Source: an uncultured Thermoleophilia bacterium (GTDB taxonomy: Bacteria; Actinomycetota; Thermoleophilia; UBA2241). From it: a stretch of DNA of 64,000 bases. The position numbers were made by a program, and so were the translations under genes. This document shows, piece by piece, positions 13,014-20,237 of this stretch (its first letter is position 1; every line of letters begins with the position of its first letter). Below the pieces are notes generated by a model, which did no database searches, was not told the origin of the DNA, and saw only the letters and a program-made list of their open reading frames with translations. The stretch lies in NCBI GenBank assembly GCA_963790185.1, contig CAWBNR010000012.1, positions 13,054 through 77,053 on the forward strand. Direction: 5' to 3'.

Positions 13014-15102
13014 CTACTCCTCGGCGGTCTCCGCCTTCGTCCAGCGCCGGCCCGGCCAGCCCGCCTTGGGACCGACCGCCAGCGTCAGCCCCGGCACCAG
13101 TGCCGTGCGCACGAGGAAGGTGTCGATCAGCACGCCGAGGGCCACCCCGATGCTGATCTCAGCCAGGTCCTTCACGGGCTGTGACAGCAGGATGAGGAAG
13201 GTCCCGGCGAGGATGATGCCTGCGCTCGTGAGCACGCCGCCCGTGACCGTCAGCGCCTTCACCGTGCCGTCTCGCAGCCCCTCCTTCATCGCCTCGCTGC
13301 GGATGCGCGTGGTGATGAAGATGTTGTAGTCGCTGCCGAGGGCCACGAGGAAGATGAACATGTACAGCGGGATGCGGTAGCTGATGCGCTCCCAGCCGAA
13401 CAGCACCTCGGTGATGAAGATGGTCGCGCCCAGCGCCGCCAGGTACGACAGCAGGTTGGTGAGCAGCAGGTAGAACGGTGCGACCAGGGCGCGCAGCAGG
13501 GCGGCCAGGATGACGCCGACGACGACGAGCGCGACGACGGCCACGAGGATGGTGTCGCGGTTGGAGAGGGCCCACGTGTCCGCCTGGATGGCCGTGGGCC
13601 CTCCCACCAATGCGATGCCGCCGCCGACGGCCGCCGTCGCGCGCGCCACCTGCCGCAACTCGCCGATCTGCTGCAGCGCCTCCTTGGAGTAGGGATCGCC
13701 CTCGAGGATCACCTGGAAGCTCAGCAGCCTGCCGCCGTCCGCCGCGCCCGTGGGGAAGGCGGCGGCCACGCCGGGCGCCTCGTTCAGGGCGCCGGTGATC
13801 ATGCCGGTGACGAACTCCGGCGGCGCCTCCGGCGCCTTGATGAGCACCGTCGTCGGCGCCAGCGCGCCCTTGGGGAAGTGCCGTTCGAGCAGCGCGTAGC
13901 CCTGCTTGGACGGCATGTCCTTCAGGAAGTCCTCGGTGAAGCTGAACCGCGGGCTGTAGAGGAGCACGCCGCAGCGCCAGGACGACGAGGAGGGCCGCGA
14001 CGACGGCGGCGGAACGCCGCGGGGCCGCGGCCACACCCTCGGCGATGCGACGCCATGTTCGATGCTCGCTGGCGTCGCCGGTGTGCGGCACCCGTGGCCA
14101 GAAGGCGCGGCGGCCCAGCAGCGCGAGCAGCGCCGGCATCAGCGTGAGGCCGGCGACGAGCGTGACGAACACGCCGAGGCCGAGTACCGGCGCGAAGCTG
14201 CGGTAGTCGCCGTAGCGGGCGAAGAGCAGCGTCAGGACGGCCAGCGTGACCGTGAGCCCGCTGGCGGCGATGGCCTCCCATGTCTCGGCGAGCGCCGTGG
14301 CGAGGGCGACGCGCGCGTCGCTCTCACGGCGCAGCTCCTCCCGGTACCTGGAGATCAGGAGCAAGCCGTAGTCGGTGCCGGCGCCGAACAGGAGGATCAC
14401 CATCAGCGAAGTGGCCTGCCCGGACAGCGTCGCGTCCATCGCCTTCGCGCCGAGCGCCAGGATGCCGCCGGCCACGAAGTAGCCGAAGCCCACGGCGAGC
14501 AGCGGCACGAACGGGAGCACCGGCGAGCGGTAGATCACGAGCAGCAGCACGAGCACCAGGATGACCGTGCCGATGAGCAGCTTGACGTCGGCGTTCAGGA
14601 AAATCTGGTAGACGTCGGTGATGAGCCCTCCGGGGCCGGTGACGCGCACCTCCATGCCCGCGACGGTGTCCCCGAAATGGTCGCCGATGCTCTTCACGGA
14701 CTCGCGGAAGCTCGGCTCGCCGGGCGTGCCGCCGAGGCTCGCGAAGATCAGCGCGCCCTTCCCGTCGTCGGAGTACTCGACCCGGGCGCTGCTGATGGGC
14801 TCCGCTCCGCTCGCGAGCCAGGTCTCGCCGGCCTCTATCGTCTGTTTCTGCTCCGCCGTGAGCGGCGCCGTCGAGCTGAACACGACGATGACCGGGGTGC
14901 CCTCGGCGTCGGGGAAGGAGGCCTGCTGCAGCGCCTCGGCCCGCTTGCTCTCCAGGGACGCCGGGAGCGACTTCGACGCGTCGTTCGTGGTCACGCTCTG
15001 GATACTCGGTCCCATGGCCAGCGCGCCGGCGACGAGCACCCACACGGCGATGACGAGCCAGGGATGCCATCTCCGAGTGGACCAGGTGATCACGTTGCGC
15101 AT
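13014..15102 (-). CDS. MMPL/RND-family transporter (one frameshift near 13.98-14.0 kb)
   Basis: LFGAGTDYGLLLISRYREE in the first half and VALGSDYNIFITTRIRSE in the second half. Confidence 0.88.
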
Positions 15103-15291
15103 TCGTCCCCTTCCGTCGCCGCGCGATCCCGTGCGCGGTCGACGTGATATCTACAGGCTCTCTCCGCACCGCGTCCGGCGTCATGAGCGCCTGGCGACCT
15201 CGCTGTGATCCTCGCCAGGCGGCACGCGGCAGTTGCGTACTTGGCCGCTGTGGGCACGGATCGTGTACTTGGTGGTTCTTCCTATATGTAC

Positions 15292-15331
15292 TACTTGCTT
15301 GACGGGCCACAAGTGGGCCGGATATCGTTGG
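15292..15331 (+). promoter_or_regulatory. Sigma-70 type promoter of the corrinoid-MttB operon
   Basis: TTGACG (15299-15304) - 18 nt - TATCGT (15323-15328); flanks conserved with the promoter at 18687-18726. Confidence 0.65.
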
Positions 15332-15409
15332 CGACCCAGCCAGCCTCTTGGCTGAAGTCGCAGCCGCGCCGTGTCTCGGTCGCGACTGACGTTCGCGAAG
15401 GAGGAGTCA

Positions 15410-16057
15410 GTGGCAGCCGAACTCTACGAACAGATGAAGCAGACCGTGATCGACGGTGAGGTCGAACTCGCCGAGGAGCTCGCCCAGAAGGGCCTCGACG
15501 CGGGTCTCCCCGCCGTCGACATCCTCGACCTCGGCTTCGTCAAGGGCATCGAGGAGGTCGGCGACCTCTTCGGCCGCGGTGAGTTCTTCCTGCCCGAGCT
15601 CGTCCAGGGGGCCGAGGCCATGAAGGCCGCGGTCAGCGTCCTGCAGCCGGCCCTCGACGCCGCCGGCGCCGGGCGCTCCTCGATGGGCGTCTGTGTCGCC
15701 GGCACCGTCGCCGGCGACATCCACGAGATCGGCAAGACGATCGTCTGCTCGATGCTCTCGGCGGCCGGCTTCTCGGTCACCGACGTCGGCTGCGACGTCC
15801 CCGTCGAGACCTTCATCGCCAAGGTCCAGGAGCTCGAACCCGACCTCCTCCTGCTCTCGGCCCTCTTGACGACGACGATGCCCAACCAGCAGAAGACGAT
15901 CGCGGCCCTGAAGAGCTCGGGTCTCCGCGAGGGCGTCAAGGTCATGGTCGGCGGCGCCCCGACGACGCGCGCCTGGGCCGACGAGATCGGCGCCGACGGC
16001 TACGCCGAGGACGCGATCGAGGCGGTCGTCGTGGCGAAGACGATCTTGGGCCTCTGA
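15410..16057 (+). CDS. Cobalamin-binding corrinoid protein (MtbC/MttC-like)
   Basis: B12-binding cap FFLPELVQGAEAM, DIHEIGK (DxHxxG), SALLTTTM, VMVGGAP; GGAGGAG RBS before the GTG. Confidence 0.93.
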   Translation: MAAELYEQMKQTVIDGEVELAEELAQKGLDAGLPAVDILDLGFVKGIEEVGDLFGRGEFFLPELVQGAEAMKAAVSVLQPALDAAGAGRSSMGVCVAGTVAGDIHEIGKTIVCSMLSAAGFSVTDVGCDVPVETFIAKVQELEPDLLLLSALLTTTMPNQQKTIAALKSSGLREGVKVMVGGAPTTRAWADEIGADGYAEDAIEAVVVAKTILGL

Positions 16058-16064
16058 GCGGGCG

Positions 16065-17471
16065 ATGACGCCCCGAGTGACGACGAGCGTGTGGGACGAG
16101 GACGCCTGCGCCAAAGCCCATGCGGCGAGTCGCAGCGTGCTCGAGCGCGCCGGTGTCGAGATCCCTCACGAGGAGGCGCTGGAACTCCTCGCCGGGGCCG
16201 GCGCGCGCGTCGAAGGCTCGCGCGCGTTCATCCCGGGGGCGGTCGTCGATACCGCCCTCGCCTCGGCTCCGGGCAGCTTCGCGCTGCCGGGCAGGGGCAA
16301 GGGCGGCATGCTCCTCGAGCAGGGACAGACCTGGTTCGGCTCCGGGCCCGACTGCATGTACCTGCACGACGCGCTCACCGGCGAGCGCCGGCGAGCTCAG
16401 CTCGACGACATCGTCGTCGGCGCCGATCTCTGCGACAAGCTCGACGAGGTCGACTTCGTCATGTCGATGGGGCTGCCGCAAGATGTCGCGCTCGACTCCG
16501 AGGACCTGTTGCAGTTCGCCGCCATGCTGGACGGCACGGCGAAGCCGCTGATCGTCTCGACGAGCCACGGCGGCGACGGCCTCGTGGCGATGCGCGAGAT
16601 GGCGGGCCTCTGCGGCGACCCCGGCAGCTTCGGCTGTCTCGTCATGTCGTCACCGCCGCTGAACTTCGATCGCGACGCCGCCGACAAGCTCGTCACGTGC
16701 GCCCGCCTCGGCATCCCCGCCATCCTGGCGCCGGCGCCTTCGGCCGGCGCCACCTCACCCGCGTCCATGACCGCTTCGATCGTCGTGGGCGACGCCGAGG
16801 TGCTGGCCGGGCTCTGCGTCCATCAGCTCGCGCGGCCCGGGGCGCCCTTCGTCTACGGGGTCGGCGCCTCCGCACTCGACATGCGCGCCGCCGTCGACGC
16901 CTACGTGATCCCGGAGCACTTCCTCGGCAACCTGGCCGGTTGCGACCTCGCGCGCTCGTACGGGGTCCCGAGCTGGGCCTATGCCGGGCCGTCCGACGCC
17001 AAGGCGCTCGACGAGCAGTGGGCCGCCGACGTCGCGATCACGACGTTGCTCGGGGCGCTCTCTCGAGCCACGCTGCTGCACGACCTCGGCTACATGGAGT
17101 CGGGGATGGCCGGCGCCCATGCCTCTATCGTCCTGGGCGCCGAGCTCGTCGGCTTCGCCCGCGCGTTCATGAGGGAGCTGCCGCTCGACGACGAAGCGCT
17201 TCAGCTCGACGAGATCGTCACCGTGGGGCCGGGGGGCAACCACCTGGCCCGGCCCTTCACGCGCAAGCATCACCGCGACTTCTGGAAGAGCGACCTGTTC
17301 GACCACACCGTGCACGATCGCTGGGAGGCGGCCGGGCGGTCGACGCTCGGCGACAGGGTCAAGCAGAAGACCCGCGACCTGCTGACCTTCGGGCGCGCGC
17401 ATCGGCTCGACCCCGAGACGCGTCGCGAGATCGACGCGATCATCGCCGCGGTGGCCGACCGCCGAGGATGA
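16065..17471 (+). CDS. Trimethylamine-methyltransferase (MttB) family protein, no pyrrolysine
   Basis: AG-P-SDAK motif region, PGAPFVYG, LHDLGYMESG, IVTVGPGGNHL; follows the corrinoid gene; no in-frame TAG. Confidence 0.9.
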   Translation: MTPRVTTSVWDEDACAKAHAASRSVLERAGVEIPHEEALELLAGAGARVEGSRAFIPGAVVDTALASAPGSFALPGRGKGGMLLEQGQTWFGSGPDCMYLHDALTGERRRAQLDDIVVGADLCDKLDEVDFVMSMGLPQDVALDSEDLLQFAAMLDGTAKPLIVSTSHGGDGLVAMREMAGLCGDPGSFGCLVMSSPPLNFDRDAADKLVTCARLGIPAILAPAPSAGATSPASMTASIVVGDAEVLAGLCVHQLARPGAPFVYGVGASALDMRAAVDAYVIPEHFLGNLAGCDLARSYGVPSWAYAGPSDAKALDEQWAADVAITTLLGALSRATLLHDLGYMESGMAGAHASIVLGAELVGFARAFMRELPLDDEALQLDEIVTVGPGGNHLARPFTRKHHRDFWKSDLFDHTVHDRWEAAGRSTLGDRVKQKTRDLLTFGRAHRLDPETRREIDAIIAAVADRRG

Positions 17472-17497
17472 GGAGACTCGCACCGGCCGGCCGCCGC

Positions 17498-18607
17498 TCA
17501 GCGTCCGGCGAGCTCCTCGAGAGGCACGCCGACCTGCTGGGCGACGAAGCTGAGCAGCAACTCGCGCACGCGCTGCACGTGCATGCCTGAGTAGCCGATC
17601 GCCGAGCGGAAGCTGAGGCCGTCCGACAGTGCCACGATCCGCTGGGCGAGCTCGGCCGGCGGGGCGACCGGGTGGAAGACGCCGGCCTGCGTGCCCTCTT
17701 CGATCACCTTCTGGACGAAGCCGGTCCAGCGCGCGGACATCGCGACGCAGTCGGCGAGGAGCTCGGGGTGCAGCCGCACACGCGCCCAGGTCTCGATCCA
17801 GAGCACGTATTCGTCGTGCAGGACGCCCTCGAACGGCACCGTCATCTCGAGGACCCGGCGCAGAAGGACCATGTGGTCCCCGGTCTCTTCACGGAGTTCC
17901 TCGAGCCAGCGGCTGGTGTGTTCGTTGGCCCACTGGAGGGCCGCGAGCAGCACCTCGTCCTTGGACTTGTAGTAGTAGTGGATGATGGCGCTCGAGACAC
18001 CGGCCTCGCGGGCGATGTCGGAGATCCGGGTCGCGGAAGGGCCGCGCGCTGCGAAGGCGCGGCAGGCGGCCGCGCGGATGTGCTCGCGCGCCCGCGACGA
18101 GCGCTCCCGCGCCGGCGCGACGCTGCCGTCGCCGGGATCGCCGGCGATCTTCCAGAGGCGCTCCAGCAGGGCGGCGTCCGACGTGCCGCTCGCGGTCGCC
18201 TCTTCCACACGCTTCTTGATGCGCAAGGCAGTCTTGTAGCTGATGCCGAGGAGGTCGGCGAGCGCTCGTGGCGCGACGTGTCCCTCGCTGGCGAAGATGT
18301 GTGTGGCCGCGGTGAACCAGGTGACCACGTTCAAGCCGGAACCCTGCATGAACGTTCCGGCGGTCGGATACACCTGGGTGCCGCAGTGGTCGCAGGCGTA
18401 GGCGCGCCGCTTCGAGACCCGGTGGAAGCGCCTCACGGTGCGGCAGTGCCGGCAGACGGCGCTGGCGCCGTCAGGCGCGTACAGCGTCGTCCAGAGCCAG
18501 TGCACGCATGCGGCCTCGTCGCCGATCGGCGCGAACACGGGGCTCACACCGTCGTCTGCGCCGCTCCCGCCCACCCCCGCCTCTCTCGCATCGGTCTCCC
18601 GCTCCAC
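17498..18607 (-). CDS. TetR/BetI-like transcriptional regulator with an N-terminal IS1595-transposase-like zinc ribbon and HTH
   Basis: CRHC...CDHC, PTAGT, WF, LGISYKTALR, followed by the TetR HTH ISDIAREAGVSSAIIHYYYKSKDEVLLA and a BetI-type C-terminus. Confidence 0.85.
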   Translation of the reverse strand: MERETDAREAGVGGSGADDGVSPVFAPIGDEAACVHWLWTTLYAPDGASAVCRHCRTVRRFHRVSKRRAYACDHCGTQVYPTAGTFMQGSGLNVVTWFTAATHIFASEGHVAPRALADLLGISYKTALRIKKRVEEATASGTSDAALLERLWKIAGDPGDGSVAPARERSSRAREHIRAAACRAFAARGPSATRISDIAREAGVSSAIIHYYYKSKDEVLLAALQWANEHTSRWLEELREETGDHMVLLRRVLEMTVPFEGVLHDEYVLWIETWARVRLHPELLADCVAMSARWTGFVQKVIEEGTQAGVFHPVAPPAELAQRIVALSDGLSFRSAIGYSGMHVQRVRELLLSFVAQQVGVPLEELAGR

Positions 18608-18686
18608 TCGACCCCCGCTCCTCGCGTGCTTACTTGGCGCATCTTACTATGCCTGGACGTCACTTGTGAAGAGTACCACGCTGAGA

Positions 18687-18726
18687 TACATGCTTGACAT
18701 GGTAGTCTGGGCGCGAATATCGTTGG
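18687..18726 (+). promoter_or_regulatory. Sigma-70 type promoter of the second MttB gene
   Basis: TTGACA (18694-18699) - 18 nt - TATCGT (18718-18723). Confidence 0.65.
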
Positions 18727-18821
18727 TGCGCCAGTCAGGCGATTCGGACGAAGAATGGGTCTGGGAGTCTCTTTCGGGGAAGGCCGTCCGTCGCTCGAGA
18801 GAGATCGGGAGGAGTCGGGGT

Positions 18822-20237
18822 ATGCCAGAGGCGTCACTCACGGTCTGGGGCGGTGCCGAGTGCCGGCGCGTCCACGAAGCCACACTCGAGCTGCTCGCCC
18901 GGGTCGGCGTGGAGGTCAAGTACGAGCCCGCGCTCGATCTGTTCCGCGCCGCCGGAGCCGACGTGCGCGAGCGCCGCGTGCGTCTCTCCGCGGCGCTGGT
19001 CGAGGCCGCTCTCGCGAGCGCCCCTCGCGAGTGGCCCCTAAAGCCGCGCGGTGGCGACACCGAGCCGCTGATGCTGCGGGACGGCGAGGTCTACTACGGC
19101 ACCGGATCGGACGTGCTCTACGTCCGTGCCTCTGAGACCGGCGAGCGCCGCCGCGCCCGCCGCGACGATGTGGAGGGCGCGGCCGCCCTCTGCGAGAAAC
19201 TCCCGAACATCGACTTCGTGATGAGTATGGGACTGCCCGAGGACGCTCCGCAGGAGATCGACGACCTCGTCCAGGTCGTCGCCATGCTGCGGGGCACGCG
19301 CAAGCCGCTCCTCGTGGCTCCGCGCGACGGCAGCGTGCTCGCGCGGATGCAGGAGATGGCGGCGGTCTGCGGCGAGAGAGACAGCTTCGCCATCTACGCC
19401 ATGCCGTCGCCCCCGCTGATGCACGACGCGGACGCGCTGACCAAGGTGATCGGCTGCGCGGAGCTTCTCATCCCCGTGGTGTACGCACCGGCGCCGAACA
19501 TGGGCGCGACCGGCCCGCGCAGCATCGCCGGGTCGGTCCTTCTCGGCAACGCCGAGACTCTCAGCGGGCTGGTGCTGCACCAGCACGTCAAGCCGGGGGC
19601 GCCGTTCGTCTACGGGGTCGGCGCCGGCGCCATGGACATGCGCACGATGACCGACCCGTACGTGGCGCCCGACGCGATCCTCGCACAGCAGGTCGGCACC
19701 GATCTCGCGCGTCACTACGGGTTGCCGAGCTTCTCCTACGCCGGCATGTCCGACTCGAAGACCCTCGACGAGCAATGGACCGCGGAGGCCGCGCTCAGCA
19801 TGGCCTACGGCTCGCTGTCCCGCGCCACGCTGCTGCACGATGTCGGCTACCTCGAGTCTGGGCTGCAGAGCTCCTGCGAGTCGATCGTCTTCGGCGACGA
19901 ACTCGTCGGCTACGCGCGCCAGTTCATGCGCAGTGTGCCGGTCGACGACTACGCCCTCGCCGTGGACGAGATCGAGGCGGCCGGTCCGGGCGGCAACTTC
20001 CTCGCCAGCAAGTACACGCGCAAGCACCACCGCGAGTTCTGGTCCGGCGACCTGTTCGATCACGCCGTCCACGATCGCTGGGCCGCGTCCGGCGCGACGA
20101 CGCTGGGCGAGCGCGTCCGGGCGAAGACCGCTCGCCTGCTCGGCGAGCCGCGGGGCTTCGCCCTGTCGGACGAGCAGGACAAGCATCTGGAGACGCTTCT
20201 CAACGACGCCCTGCAGGACGAGGGCGCACGAGTCTGA
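18822..20237 (+). CDS. Second MttB-family methyltransferase, no pyrrolysine
   Basis: AG-M-SDSK, PGAPFVYG, LHDVGYLESG, AAGPGGNFL; start MPEASLT after GGAGGAG. Confidence 0.9.
   Translation: MPEASLTVWGGAECRRVHEATLELLARVGVEVKYEPALDLFRAAGADVRERRVRLSAALVEAALASAPREWPLKPRGGDTEPLMLRDGEVYYGTGSDVLYVRASETGERRRARRDDVEGAAALCEKLPNIDFVMSMGLPEDAPQEIDDLVQVVAMLRGTRKPLLVAPRDGSVLARMQEMAAVCGERDSFAIYAMPSPPLMHDADALTKVIGCAELLIPVVYAPAPNMGATGPRSIAGSVLLGNAETLSGLVLHQHVKPGAPFVYGVGAGAMDMRTMTDPYVAPDAILAQQVGTDLARHYGLPSFSYAGMSDSKTLDEQWTAEAALSMAYGSLSRATLLHDVGYLESGLQSSCESIVFGDELVGYARQFMRSVPVDDYALAVDEIEAAGPGGNFLASKYTRKHHREFWSGDLFDHAVHDRWAASGATTLGERVRAKTARLLGEPRGFALSDEQDKHLETLLNDALQDEGARV

Follow-up and report, generated by a model that had tools for sequence, protein, structure and literature searches.

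The window analysed here, a 64,000-nucleotide stretch from an uncultured Thermoleophilia bacterium (contig CAWBNR010000012.1), contains a regulator gene that lies convergent with a unit made up of a corrinoid protein gene and an MttB-superfamily methyltransferase gene (MttB1), and divergent from a second methyltransferase gene of that superfamily (MttB2). Its predicted product joins an N-terminal zinc-ribbon and helix-turn-helix (HTH) module, of the kind found at the front of IS1595-family transposases, to a BetI-like TetR regulator (Table 1). An earlier reading made from the letters alone (hereafter the sequence-only reading) had proposed this fusion as one uninterrupted frame of 369 residues. 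The list of open reading frames (ORFs) indeed holds a single uninterrupted frame there, and its translation, which includes GDEAACVHWLWTTLYAPDGASAVCRHCRTVRRFHRVSKRRAYACDHCGTQVYPTAGTFMQGSGLNVVTWF and, further on, LGISYKTALRIKKR, agrees exactly with the residues quoted in that reading.

The regulator was modelled with AlphaFold2 using an alignment of 39 homologues (34-95% identity). The full-length model had a mean predicted local distance difference test score (pLDDT) of 86.2 and was confident at residues 30-155 and 166-369. When the N-terminal module was modelled alone, the pLDDT rose to 92 with a predicted template modelling score (pTM) of 0.82; here a three-stranded sheet holds the four cysteines of the module, and a conserved loop separates the ribbon from the HTH. 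The putative recognition helix of this HTH, YKTALRIKKR, is basic and contains the invariant residue R129. As modelled, the regulator is two confident folds, residues ~27-156 and 166-369, joined by a disordered linker whose length and sequence vary in the family alignment.

Zn_ribbon_IS1595 (PF12760) was matched by 36 of the 39 aligned homologues when these were scanned singly. We then searched a module-only profile of 125 positions against 1.84 billion cluster representatives, which returned 11,632 proteins at E<=1e-3 and 2,034 at E<=1e-10. The 102 top matches outside the obvious TetR set (E ~1e-27 to 1e-41, with ~115 of the 125 positions covered) included 76 with PF12760 and 23 with the catalytic domain DDE_Tnp_IS1595 (best E 2.8e-42). 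Genuine DDE_Tnp_IS1595 transposases were matched by the profile at E 1e-27 to 1e-38, and one profile match, P0136 (E 3.7e-38), is independently recorded on its contig as a DDE_Tnp_IS1595 protein. Given the family-level PF12760 matches together with the profile matches to DDE-bearing transposases, P0136 included, sequence comparison establishes that the entire module, the HTH as well as the ribbon, is homologous to the front part of IS1595 transposases, and the assignment that the sequence-only reading had made for the N-terminal half holds. No Pfam IS1 zinc-finger or HTH model matched the window protein. In the PDB, no entry resembled the whole module by sequence (best E 0.32) or by fold (best E 0.68), and the piecewise matches were to zinc ribbons or HTHs only, none of them significant (the HTHs of KorA, Lrp/AsnC and DeoR came at E>0.6).

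The top profile matches also included module carriers of other kinds, namely STAND NTPase/TPR/LuxR proteins and NHL-propeller proteins, which carry the module at E ~1e-29 to 1e-34. In the STAND proteins P0211, P0257 and P0191, a module lacking the DDE domain is fused to NB-ARC/AAA_16, MalT-like TPR and a LuxR-type GerE domain (1,117 aa), and in P0164 and P0166 a DDE-less module is fused to NHL beta-propellers. By their placement in the module tree described below, where they are nested among transposase-linked modules, the STAND and NHL fusions appear to be independent exaptations.

A search for homologues in 5.8 billion proteins gave about 90 clusters of full-length fusions at 37-95% identity, many with a precomputed PF12760 match. 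In all, the family counts about 100 clusters (34-95% identity), which come from NCBI, ENA, JGI and Logan. Over 40 named genomes carry the fusion, among them many Thermoleophilia metagenome-assembled genomes (MAGs), several Nonomuraea isolates and Mycobacterium sp. 21AC1, and the possibility that the fusion was a chimeric join unique to this assembly is thereby removed. Across the 39 aligned homologues, C52, C55, C72, C75, L38, W39, G47, F61-H62-R63, R67, P81, T85, S90, W97 and R129 were invariant. The ratio of nonsynonymous to synonymous substitution (dN/dS, by the Nei-Gojobori method over ten orthologue pairs), a check suggested for the N-terminal half by the sequence-only reading, was 0.03-0.27 for the module, 0.05-0.24 for TetR_C and 0-0.17 for TetR_N; in several pairs the linker, residues 157-165, had the highest value of all regions. 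By this measure the module is under purifying selection, like the TetR half. The invariant cysteines and the selection on the N-terminal half also speak against translation that starts at the TetR domain.

A tree of 216 modules placed all of the TetR-linked modules (103/103) and six fragments on one side of a single branch (Shimodaira-Hasegawa-like approximate likelihood ratio test support, 86), with the DDE, STAND and NHL forms on the other side. A tree of the TetR halves likewise clustered the fusions, giving 6 label changes compared to 38 in shuffles, and the exceptions were truncated gene calls. Both trees are in keeping with what is essentially a single fusion, which then spread within the Actinomycetota.

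We asked whether the gene has any feature of a mobile element beyond the module. There was no match to the DDE_Tnp_IS1595 catalytic domain (PF12762) in the window protein at E<=1 in Pfam, and no inverted-repeat pair bracketing 17498-18607 was found; both absences had been noted from the sequence alone. The window belongs to a 2.44 Mb MAG that is 76% complete, in which the module is present in one copy and no IS1595 transposase was found. Of 41 relatives, 11 carry 1-3 copies of the module. Strong matches (E<=1e-40) fall within open frames that measure 342-538 aa, a length fitting the fusion. The likeness to IS1595-family (ISXO2-like) transposases is therefore confined to ~115 N-terminal residues, homologous throughout and including the Cys4 ribbon, PTAGT, WF and the HTH. 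Unlike those transposases, the window protein has no DDE domain or terminal repeats and is single-copy, syntenic across genera and under purifying selection within a regulator. As it has neither a DDE domain nor inverted repeats and shows no sign of mobility, we classify the regulator, on sequence grounds, as not an IS1595 transposase, although it has the DNA-binding module of that family, with ribbon and HTH recognised at the family level.

The two nearest DDE-bearing relatives, L085 and L086, come from unrelated samples and share an upstream promoter-like element, AACTATCCCTTGAC(A/T)GTA (L085 2519-2577; L086 ~985-1020). No convincing terminal inverted repeats were found around their DDE_Tnp_IS1595 genes, which may perhaps not be canonical insertion sequences.

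The TetR half was found complete, as had been claimed, with both of its Pfam domains above cut-off. A Foldseek search with this half gave 165 PDB matches at E<=1e-3, and all 50 that were listed are TetR-family regulators. The top match was 4NEL (template modelling (TM) score 0.87, root-mean-square deviation 2.1 A), and the half superposes on the Saccharomonospora viridis TetR structures 4NEL, 4ICH, 4KWA and 4JNN at TM 0.87 and 33-34% identity (phmmer E 1.5e-24). TetR_C_6 was matched in all 39 aligned homologues, whereas the BetI equivalog cut-offs were not reached (59.4 vs 201.3 bits for TIGR03384 and 53 vs 118 bits for NF001978). Judged by these sequence matches, the regulator is a member of the TetR family that is BetI-like, yet not a BetI orthologue. 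The S. viridis protein shares its fold and family over residues 166-369, and the ligands in its structures are choline in 4KWA and an N,N-dimethyl compound in 4NEL; choline fits a quaternary-amine context.

The PDB chain 4ICH_A has 311 residues, with the TetR part starting at residue 116; 4ICH and its relatives, like the window protein, have an extra N-terminal DNA-binding domain before the TetR HTH. In two Pseudonocardiaceae relatives of 4ICH (L087 and L102), an XRE-type HTH (HTH_31/HTH_3) precedes TetR_N and TetR_C_6, and a gene for a beta-keto acid cleavage enzyme (BKACE) follows. The choline binder from S. viridis that was crystallised is itself a dual-HTH protein of this family, and its structures show and use the TetR half only. 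The 4ICH lineage differs from ours in that its head is an XRE/Cro-type HTH, not a ribbon with an HTH, and its neighbour is a BKACE gene, not MttB. The two extensions are taken as independent because the module profile gives no match to 4ICH. Thus, as far as these comparisons indicate, BetI-like TetRs were extended at the N-terminus by a further DNA-binding head on at least two occasions, and the heads came from unrelated sources, one XRE-type and the other IS1595-type.

Table 1. Coordinates (window positions) of the regulator, its domains, the neighbouring genes, and the predicted promoters and conserved blocks.
Feature	Position	Strand	Details
Regulator coding sequence	17498..18607	minus	369 aa, GTG start; IS1595-type zinc-ribbon/HTH module, linker, BetI-like TetR
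N-terminal module	18140..18529	minus	residues ~27-156; helix 31-42, zinc ribbon, HTH, helix 143-156
Cys4 zinc ribbon	18374..18469	minus	residues 47-78; C52, C55, C72, C75; strands 49-52, 57-64, 69-72
Three-helix HTH of the module	18197..18328	minus	residues 94-137; helices 94-106, 113-120, 124-137
Inter-domain linker, disordered	18113..18139	minus	residues 157-165; pLDDT <50
TetR_N HTH	17939..18079	minus	residues 177-223; PF00440, 52.4 bits, cut-off 24
TetR_C_6, BetI-type ligand and dimerisation domain	17534..17863	minus	residues 249-358; PF13977, 55.3 bits, cut-off 27
Corrinoid (B12-binding) protein gene, putative regulon member	15371..16057	plus	PF02310, PF02607
MttB-superfamily methyltransferase 1 (MttB1, non-pyrrolysine), putative regulon member	16065..17471	plus	PF06253, E 9e-70
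MttB-superfamily methyltransferase 2 (MttB2, non-pyrrolysine)	18822..20237	plus	PF06253, E 1e-73; divergent from the regulator
Predicted regulator promoter (P_reg)	18641..18670	minus	TTCACA, 18 nt, TAAGAT; both hexamers in blocks conserved across 22 loci
Predicted MttB2 promoter (P_mttB2)	18694..18723	plus	TTGACA, 18 nt, TATCGT; conserved in 22 loci
Predicted corrinoid promoter (P_corr)	15299-15328	plus	-35 TTGACG at 15299-15304, 18 nt, -10 TATCGT at 15323-15328
Second putatively regulated promoter region, upstream of the corrinoid gene	15237..15328	plus	GTACTTGG at 15237, GTACTTGG at 15265, TACTTGCTTGAC at 15292
Block I	18630..18648		TTACTTGGCGCATCTTACT, also written TTACTTGGCGCAT..TAC; TACTTG invariant; overlaps the regulator -10 and start site
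Block II	18661..18670		CACTTGTGAA; ACTTGT invariant; overlaps the regulator -35
Block III	18687..18700		TACATGCTTGACAT, also written TACnTGCTTGACAT; overlaps the MttB2 -35
Block IV	18723..18738		TTGGT-GCGCCA-GTCAG; consensus of relatives TTGAC-N6-GTCAG; just after the MttB2 -10; candidate TetR-type operator

The best PDB match of both methyltransferases was the glycine betaine methyltransferase 9YCE/2QNE (E 3e-62 for MttB2 and E 2e-49 for MttB1), and both are nearer to this enzyme than to the trimethylamine methyltransferases; we call MttB2 MtgB-like. By tBLASTn and inspection of fetched loci, an MttB2 orthologue was found divergent from the regulator in over 25 Thermoleophilia loci, even where the regulators share only ~46% identity. 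On the other side of the regulator lies the corrinoid gene, with or without MttB1, an arrangement that is syntenic in over 15 loci. The sequence-only reading had suggested looking for the same fusion next to MttB genes elsewhere, and this expectation held within Thermoleophilia; the association is not specific to MttB, since distant members lie beside sarcosine oxidase genes or beside MmgE/PrpD and transporter genes. In particular, a 43%-identical family member is divergent from the sarcosine oxidase genes soxBDAG, and Nonomuraea members are divergent from an MmgE/PrpD gene and an amino-acid-type ATP-binding cassette (ABC) transporter. We had considered that the Nonomuraea and Mycobacterium loci share the sarcosine oxidase context of locus L003, and rejected this on finding the MmgE/PrpD gene and the ABC transporter there.

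In most of the orthologous loci (L005-L024) the corrinoid gene is directly convergent with the regulator and there is no full MttB1; the corrinoid-MttB1 pair is kept only in the window and in L025, L026 and L037. Divergent from the corrinoid promoter of the window is a gene for an MMPL-type transporter (13014-15102, minus strand) that is split over two overlapping frames. The second half of the 647-aa ORF at 13159-15102 is Arg/Gly-rich nonsense, and the plausible membrane domain of the C-terminus lies in the 340-aa ORF at 13014-14036. The pattern points to a frameshift near 13900-14036, from a sequencing error or in a pseudogene.

A sigma70-type consensus scan over 15100-18900 found exactly three promoter-like sequences, compared to 0.0 expected: those upstream of the regulator, of MttB2 and of the corrinoid gene. 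The regions of P_mttB2 and P_corr align with each other. When 22 orthologous divergent intergenic regions were aligned, four conserved blocks emerged (Table 1), and the CTTG cores of Blocks I-III, at 18633, 18663 and 18693, are spaced by exactly 30 bp. The signature of Block III, TRCNTGCTTGAC, occurs just twice in the 2.44 Mb assembly, once at the MttB2 promoter and once at 15292, and in at least 11 orthologous loci it is again present upstream of the corrinoid gene. Those corrinoid promoters also hold further TACTTG elements and a near-perfect palindrome, ACTTG-GCG-CAAGT. The recurrence of the same elements is good comparative evidence that one factor controls both methyltransferase promoters and its own, and that factor would most simply be the adjacent regulator. 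The co-control of the two methyltransferase promoters that the sequence-only reading had thought plausible thus gains support from comparison, both here and in the orthologous loci.

In TetR relatives without the module, the region upstream of the gene itself holds a single palindrome: ATTGAC-N6-GTCAAT for the Gaiellales and ACTGG-ACGT-CCAGT for other relatives. From the Gaiellales palindrome we had assigned Block IV to the TetR domain; this was dropped, as the palindrome of the other module-less relatives resembles ACTTG-GCG-CAAGT. The additional ACTTG elements in the same orientation, phased 26-30 bp apart, are candidate sites for the extra head because they are surplus to what a plain TetR dimer needs.

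Conserved DNA was also seen at two other places. In the Nonomuraea and Mycobacterium loci (L033, L035 and L039-L047), a palindrome, CTTG-T-CAAGGAAT-N3-ATTCCTTG, is strongly conserved ~60-130 nt upstream of the fusion gene and overlaps the TTGACA box of the divergent MmgE/PrpD-ABC operon; an upstream inverted repeat, TGTTTC-N24-GAAACA, is also present. Outside the window but in its own genome, TACTTGGT recurs five times at G000:C7:445303-445378, with four gaps of exactly 15 bp and one of 30 bp. This tandem repeat contains the Block I heptamer and may be a coding repeat or unrelated.

Taken together, we consider it probable that the gene encodes a functional, vertically maintained BetI-like TetR repressor with an IS1595-derived ribbon and HTH, which controls three promoters in quaternary-amine demethylation. 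An ancestor of the regulator would have taken from an IS1595-family transposase its N-terminal Cys4 ribbon and HTH, but not its DDE catalytic domain. The present protein presumably forms homodimers and has a pocket that takes a quaternary or methylated amine as its small-molecule ligand, an effector class suggested by the S. viridis structures with a choline- or dimethylamine-type ligand, by the likeness of both MttBs to glycine betaine methyltransferase and by the soxBDAG neighbour. Free of effector, it would bind conserved sites that overlap its own promoter, that of MttB2 and that of the corrinoid-MttB1 unit, the last 3.4 kb away, and so repress a corrinoid-dependent, glycine-betaine-type system of quaternary-amine demethylation. 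Binding of the effector at the TetR_C_6 domain would release the protein from DNA. With the second head tethered to each subunit, a dimer could have up to four DNA-reading units, which probably read the extra ACTTG elements flanking the TetR-type palindrome and would thereby add affinity, specificity or cooperativity. The comparative evidence makes it probable that the regulator controls the two adjacent operons for corrinoid-dependent quaternary-amine methyltransferases; that this control is repression and not activation, what the effector is, that the module binds DNA and zinc, and which site each head reads are what we infer beyond this.

A bolder version, which strikes us as rather unlikely, is that the IS1595 unit is a repeatedly exapted module, taken up by TetR, STAND/LuxR and NHL proteins alike, and that here it forms a second, zinc-dependent head that reads the palindrome together with ACTTG half-sites phased at ~30 bp, wraps or loops the DNA and perhaps bridges the promoters 3.4 kb apart. 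If true, such reading by a four-headed dimer would give TetR regulators a way of recognising operators that has not been described for them.

Several observations weigh against the reading of the protein as a two-headed repressor with a transposase-derived module. Taken singly, the window protein scores 21.7 bits against Zn_ribbon_IS1595 over residues 47-78, under the cut-off of 25.4 (E 1.9e-4), and its alignment of residues 93-141 to positions 5-54 of the 215 in NCBIfam transpos_IS1595 (NF033547) is also sub-threshold (E 0.0036), so that from this protein alone the IS1595 claim is only a lead. The pTM of the full-length AlphaFold2 model is just 0.55, which leaves the mutual placement of the two heads undefined. 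We found no experiment or structure that shows DNA binding by an IS1595-type module, either here or in transposases. At the divergent promoters, the conserved blocks fall on the -35 and -10 hexamers, and part of their conservation may therefore reflect promoter, rather than operator, function. The left arm of Block IV is degenerate in the lineage of the window. Since both the ACTTG palindrome and TTGAC-N6-GTCAG have counterparts in module-less relatives, no element can be uniquely assigned to the extra head. Upstream of the regulator, CAAGT[AG] occurs in four of eight lineage representatives compared to a chance of 0.05-0.10 each, a post hoc count that is suggestive; in Nonomuraea, where the beginning of the coding region overlaps the motif, its conservation may be that of coding sequence. 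Finally, the module tree, on which the direction of transfer from transposase to regulator rests, is unrooted.

The alternative that survives best, though we judge it unlikely, is that the module is kept for a role other than DNA binding, such as zinc or redox sensing, oligomerisation, or contact with a partner like RNA polymerase or another regulator, while the TetR HTH does all of the DNA recognition. The purifying selection and the invariant Cys4 set show that the module has a function, not which one, and TetR-type palindromes and promoter hexamers could in principle explain every conserved DNA element. A role away from promoters is also conceivable for the module on NHL propellers and STAND NTPases; the STAND fusion P0211, however, pairs the module with a LuxR HTH, which makes it a transcription factor. 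In the regulator the HTH has been kept beside the ribbon, with its basic putative recognition helix and invariant R129, and the homology extends over the full length of a transposase region that in the related IS1 performs binding specific for the inverted repeats (PMC12428005). In addition, the phased ACTTG elements at both promoters exceed what a single TetR dimer needs. These points speak against this alternative.

We regard as decidedly improbable the reverse polarity, in which an old cellular ribbon/HTH domain was acquired both by IS1595 transposases and by the TetR lineage. Without a root, the TetR clade is sister to DDE-linked sequences and not demonstrably nested among them, and many module proteins have no recognisable DDE domain. 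Most of the short ones, however, look like fragments from short contigs (several are exactly 192 aa) and not like stand-alone genes. DDE-linked modules span the whole non-TetR side of the tree, with the STAND and NHL fusions nested among them, whereas the TetR fusions are one clade confined to Actinomycetota; moreover, in the curated models of both Pfam and NCBIfam, the module is a transposase domain by definition. Transfer from transposase to regulator is the more parsimonious reading of these sequences.

The chance that the fusion is an artefact or has no function (an assembly chimera, an insertion-sequence remnant lying upstream of a normal TetR gene, or a protein whose true start is at the TetR domain) is negligible, for although the window protein falls below the Zn_ribbon_IS1595 cut-off and comes from an incomplete MAG, the same architecture recurs in about 100 clusters from multiple sources, Nonomuraea and Mycobacterium isolate genomes included, with invariant cysteines, dN/dS of 0.03-0.27, a predicted promoter upstream of the long ORF and no insertion-sequence ends.

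For the two-headed repressor, the closest mechanistic precedent is InsA of IS1, which has a zinc-finger and HTH unit in common with the InsAB' transposase and, alone and with no catalytic domain, binds DNA specifically at the inverted repeats (PMC12428005). The IS1595 family is described as IS1-related by Siguier et al. (2009), as cited in PMC12428005. In both cases a zinc-finger and HTH unit of a transposase acts, or in ours would act, as a DNA-binding regulator without the catalytic domain. InsA is, however, encoded inside the element and binds the inverted repeats of that element, while in the window a ligand-responsive TetR carries the unit, and the locus is a catabolic one of the host. 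The STAND and NHL fusions have the module in common with the regulator and likewise lack the DDE domain; their partner domains differ, and they are placed among DDE-linked sequences, not in the TetR clade. Our literature searches found no published study of this architecture, either as an IS1595 zinc ribbon joined to TetR or as a transcription factor domesticated from a transposase. Database pipelines already annotate both halves of the fusion automatically. At least one pipeline uses PF12760 as a marker of transposases (PMC13639185), and such pipelines would miscount these regulators as mobile elements.

The fusion bears both on TetR regulators as a family and on the reuse of transposase parts by their hosts. 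TetR regulators are among the best-understood bacterial repressors and normally have one HTH and one ligand domain. Reuse of transposase DNA-binding domains by the host is well known in eukaryotes and seldom documented in bacteria. A conserved TetR subfamily with a second, unrelated head that derives from a transposase would be a clear bacterial case of such reuse, and the independent XRE-type head in the 4ICH sister lineage suggests a recurring route to more complex operator recognition. Because cultured Nonomuraea carry the fusion, it is experimentally tractable. In soil Thermoleophilia, the regulator is a marker, and probably the controller, of uncharacterised demethylation systems of the non-pyrrolysine MttB/corrinoid kind, and the identity of its effector would point to the substrate of those systems.

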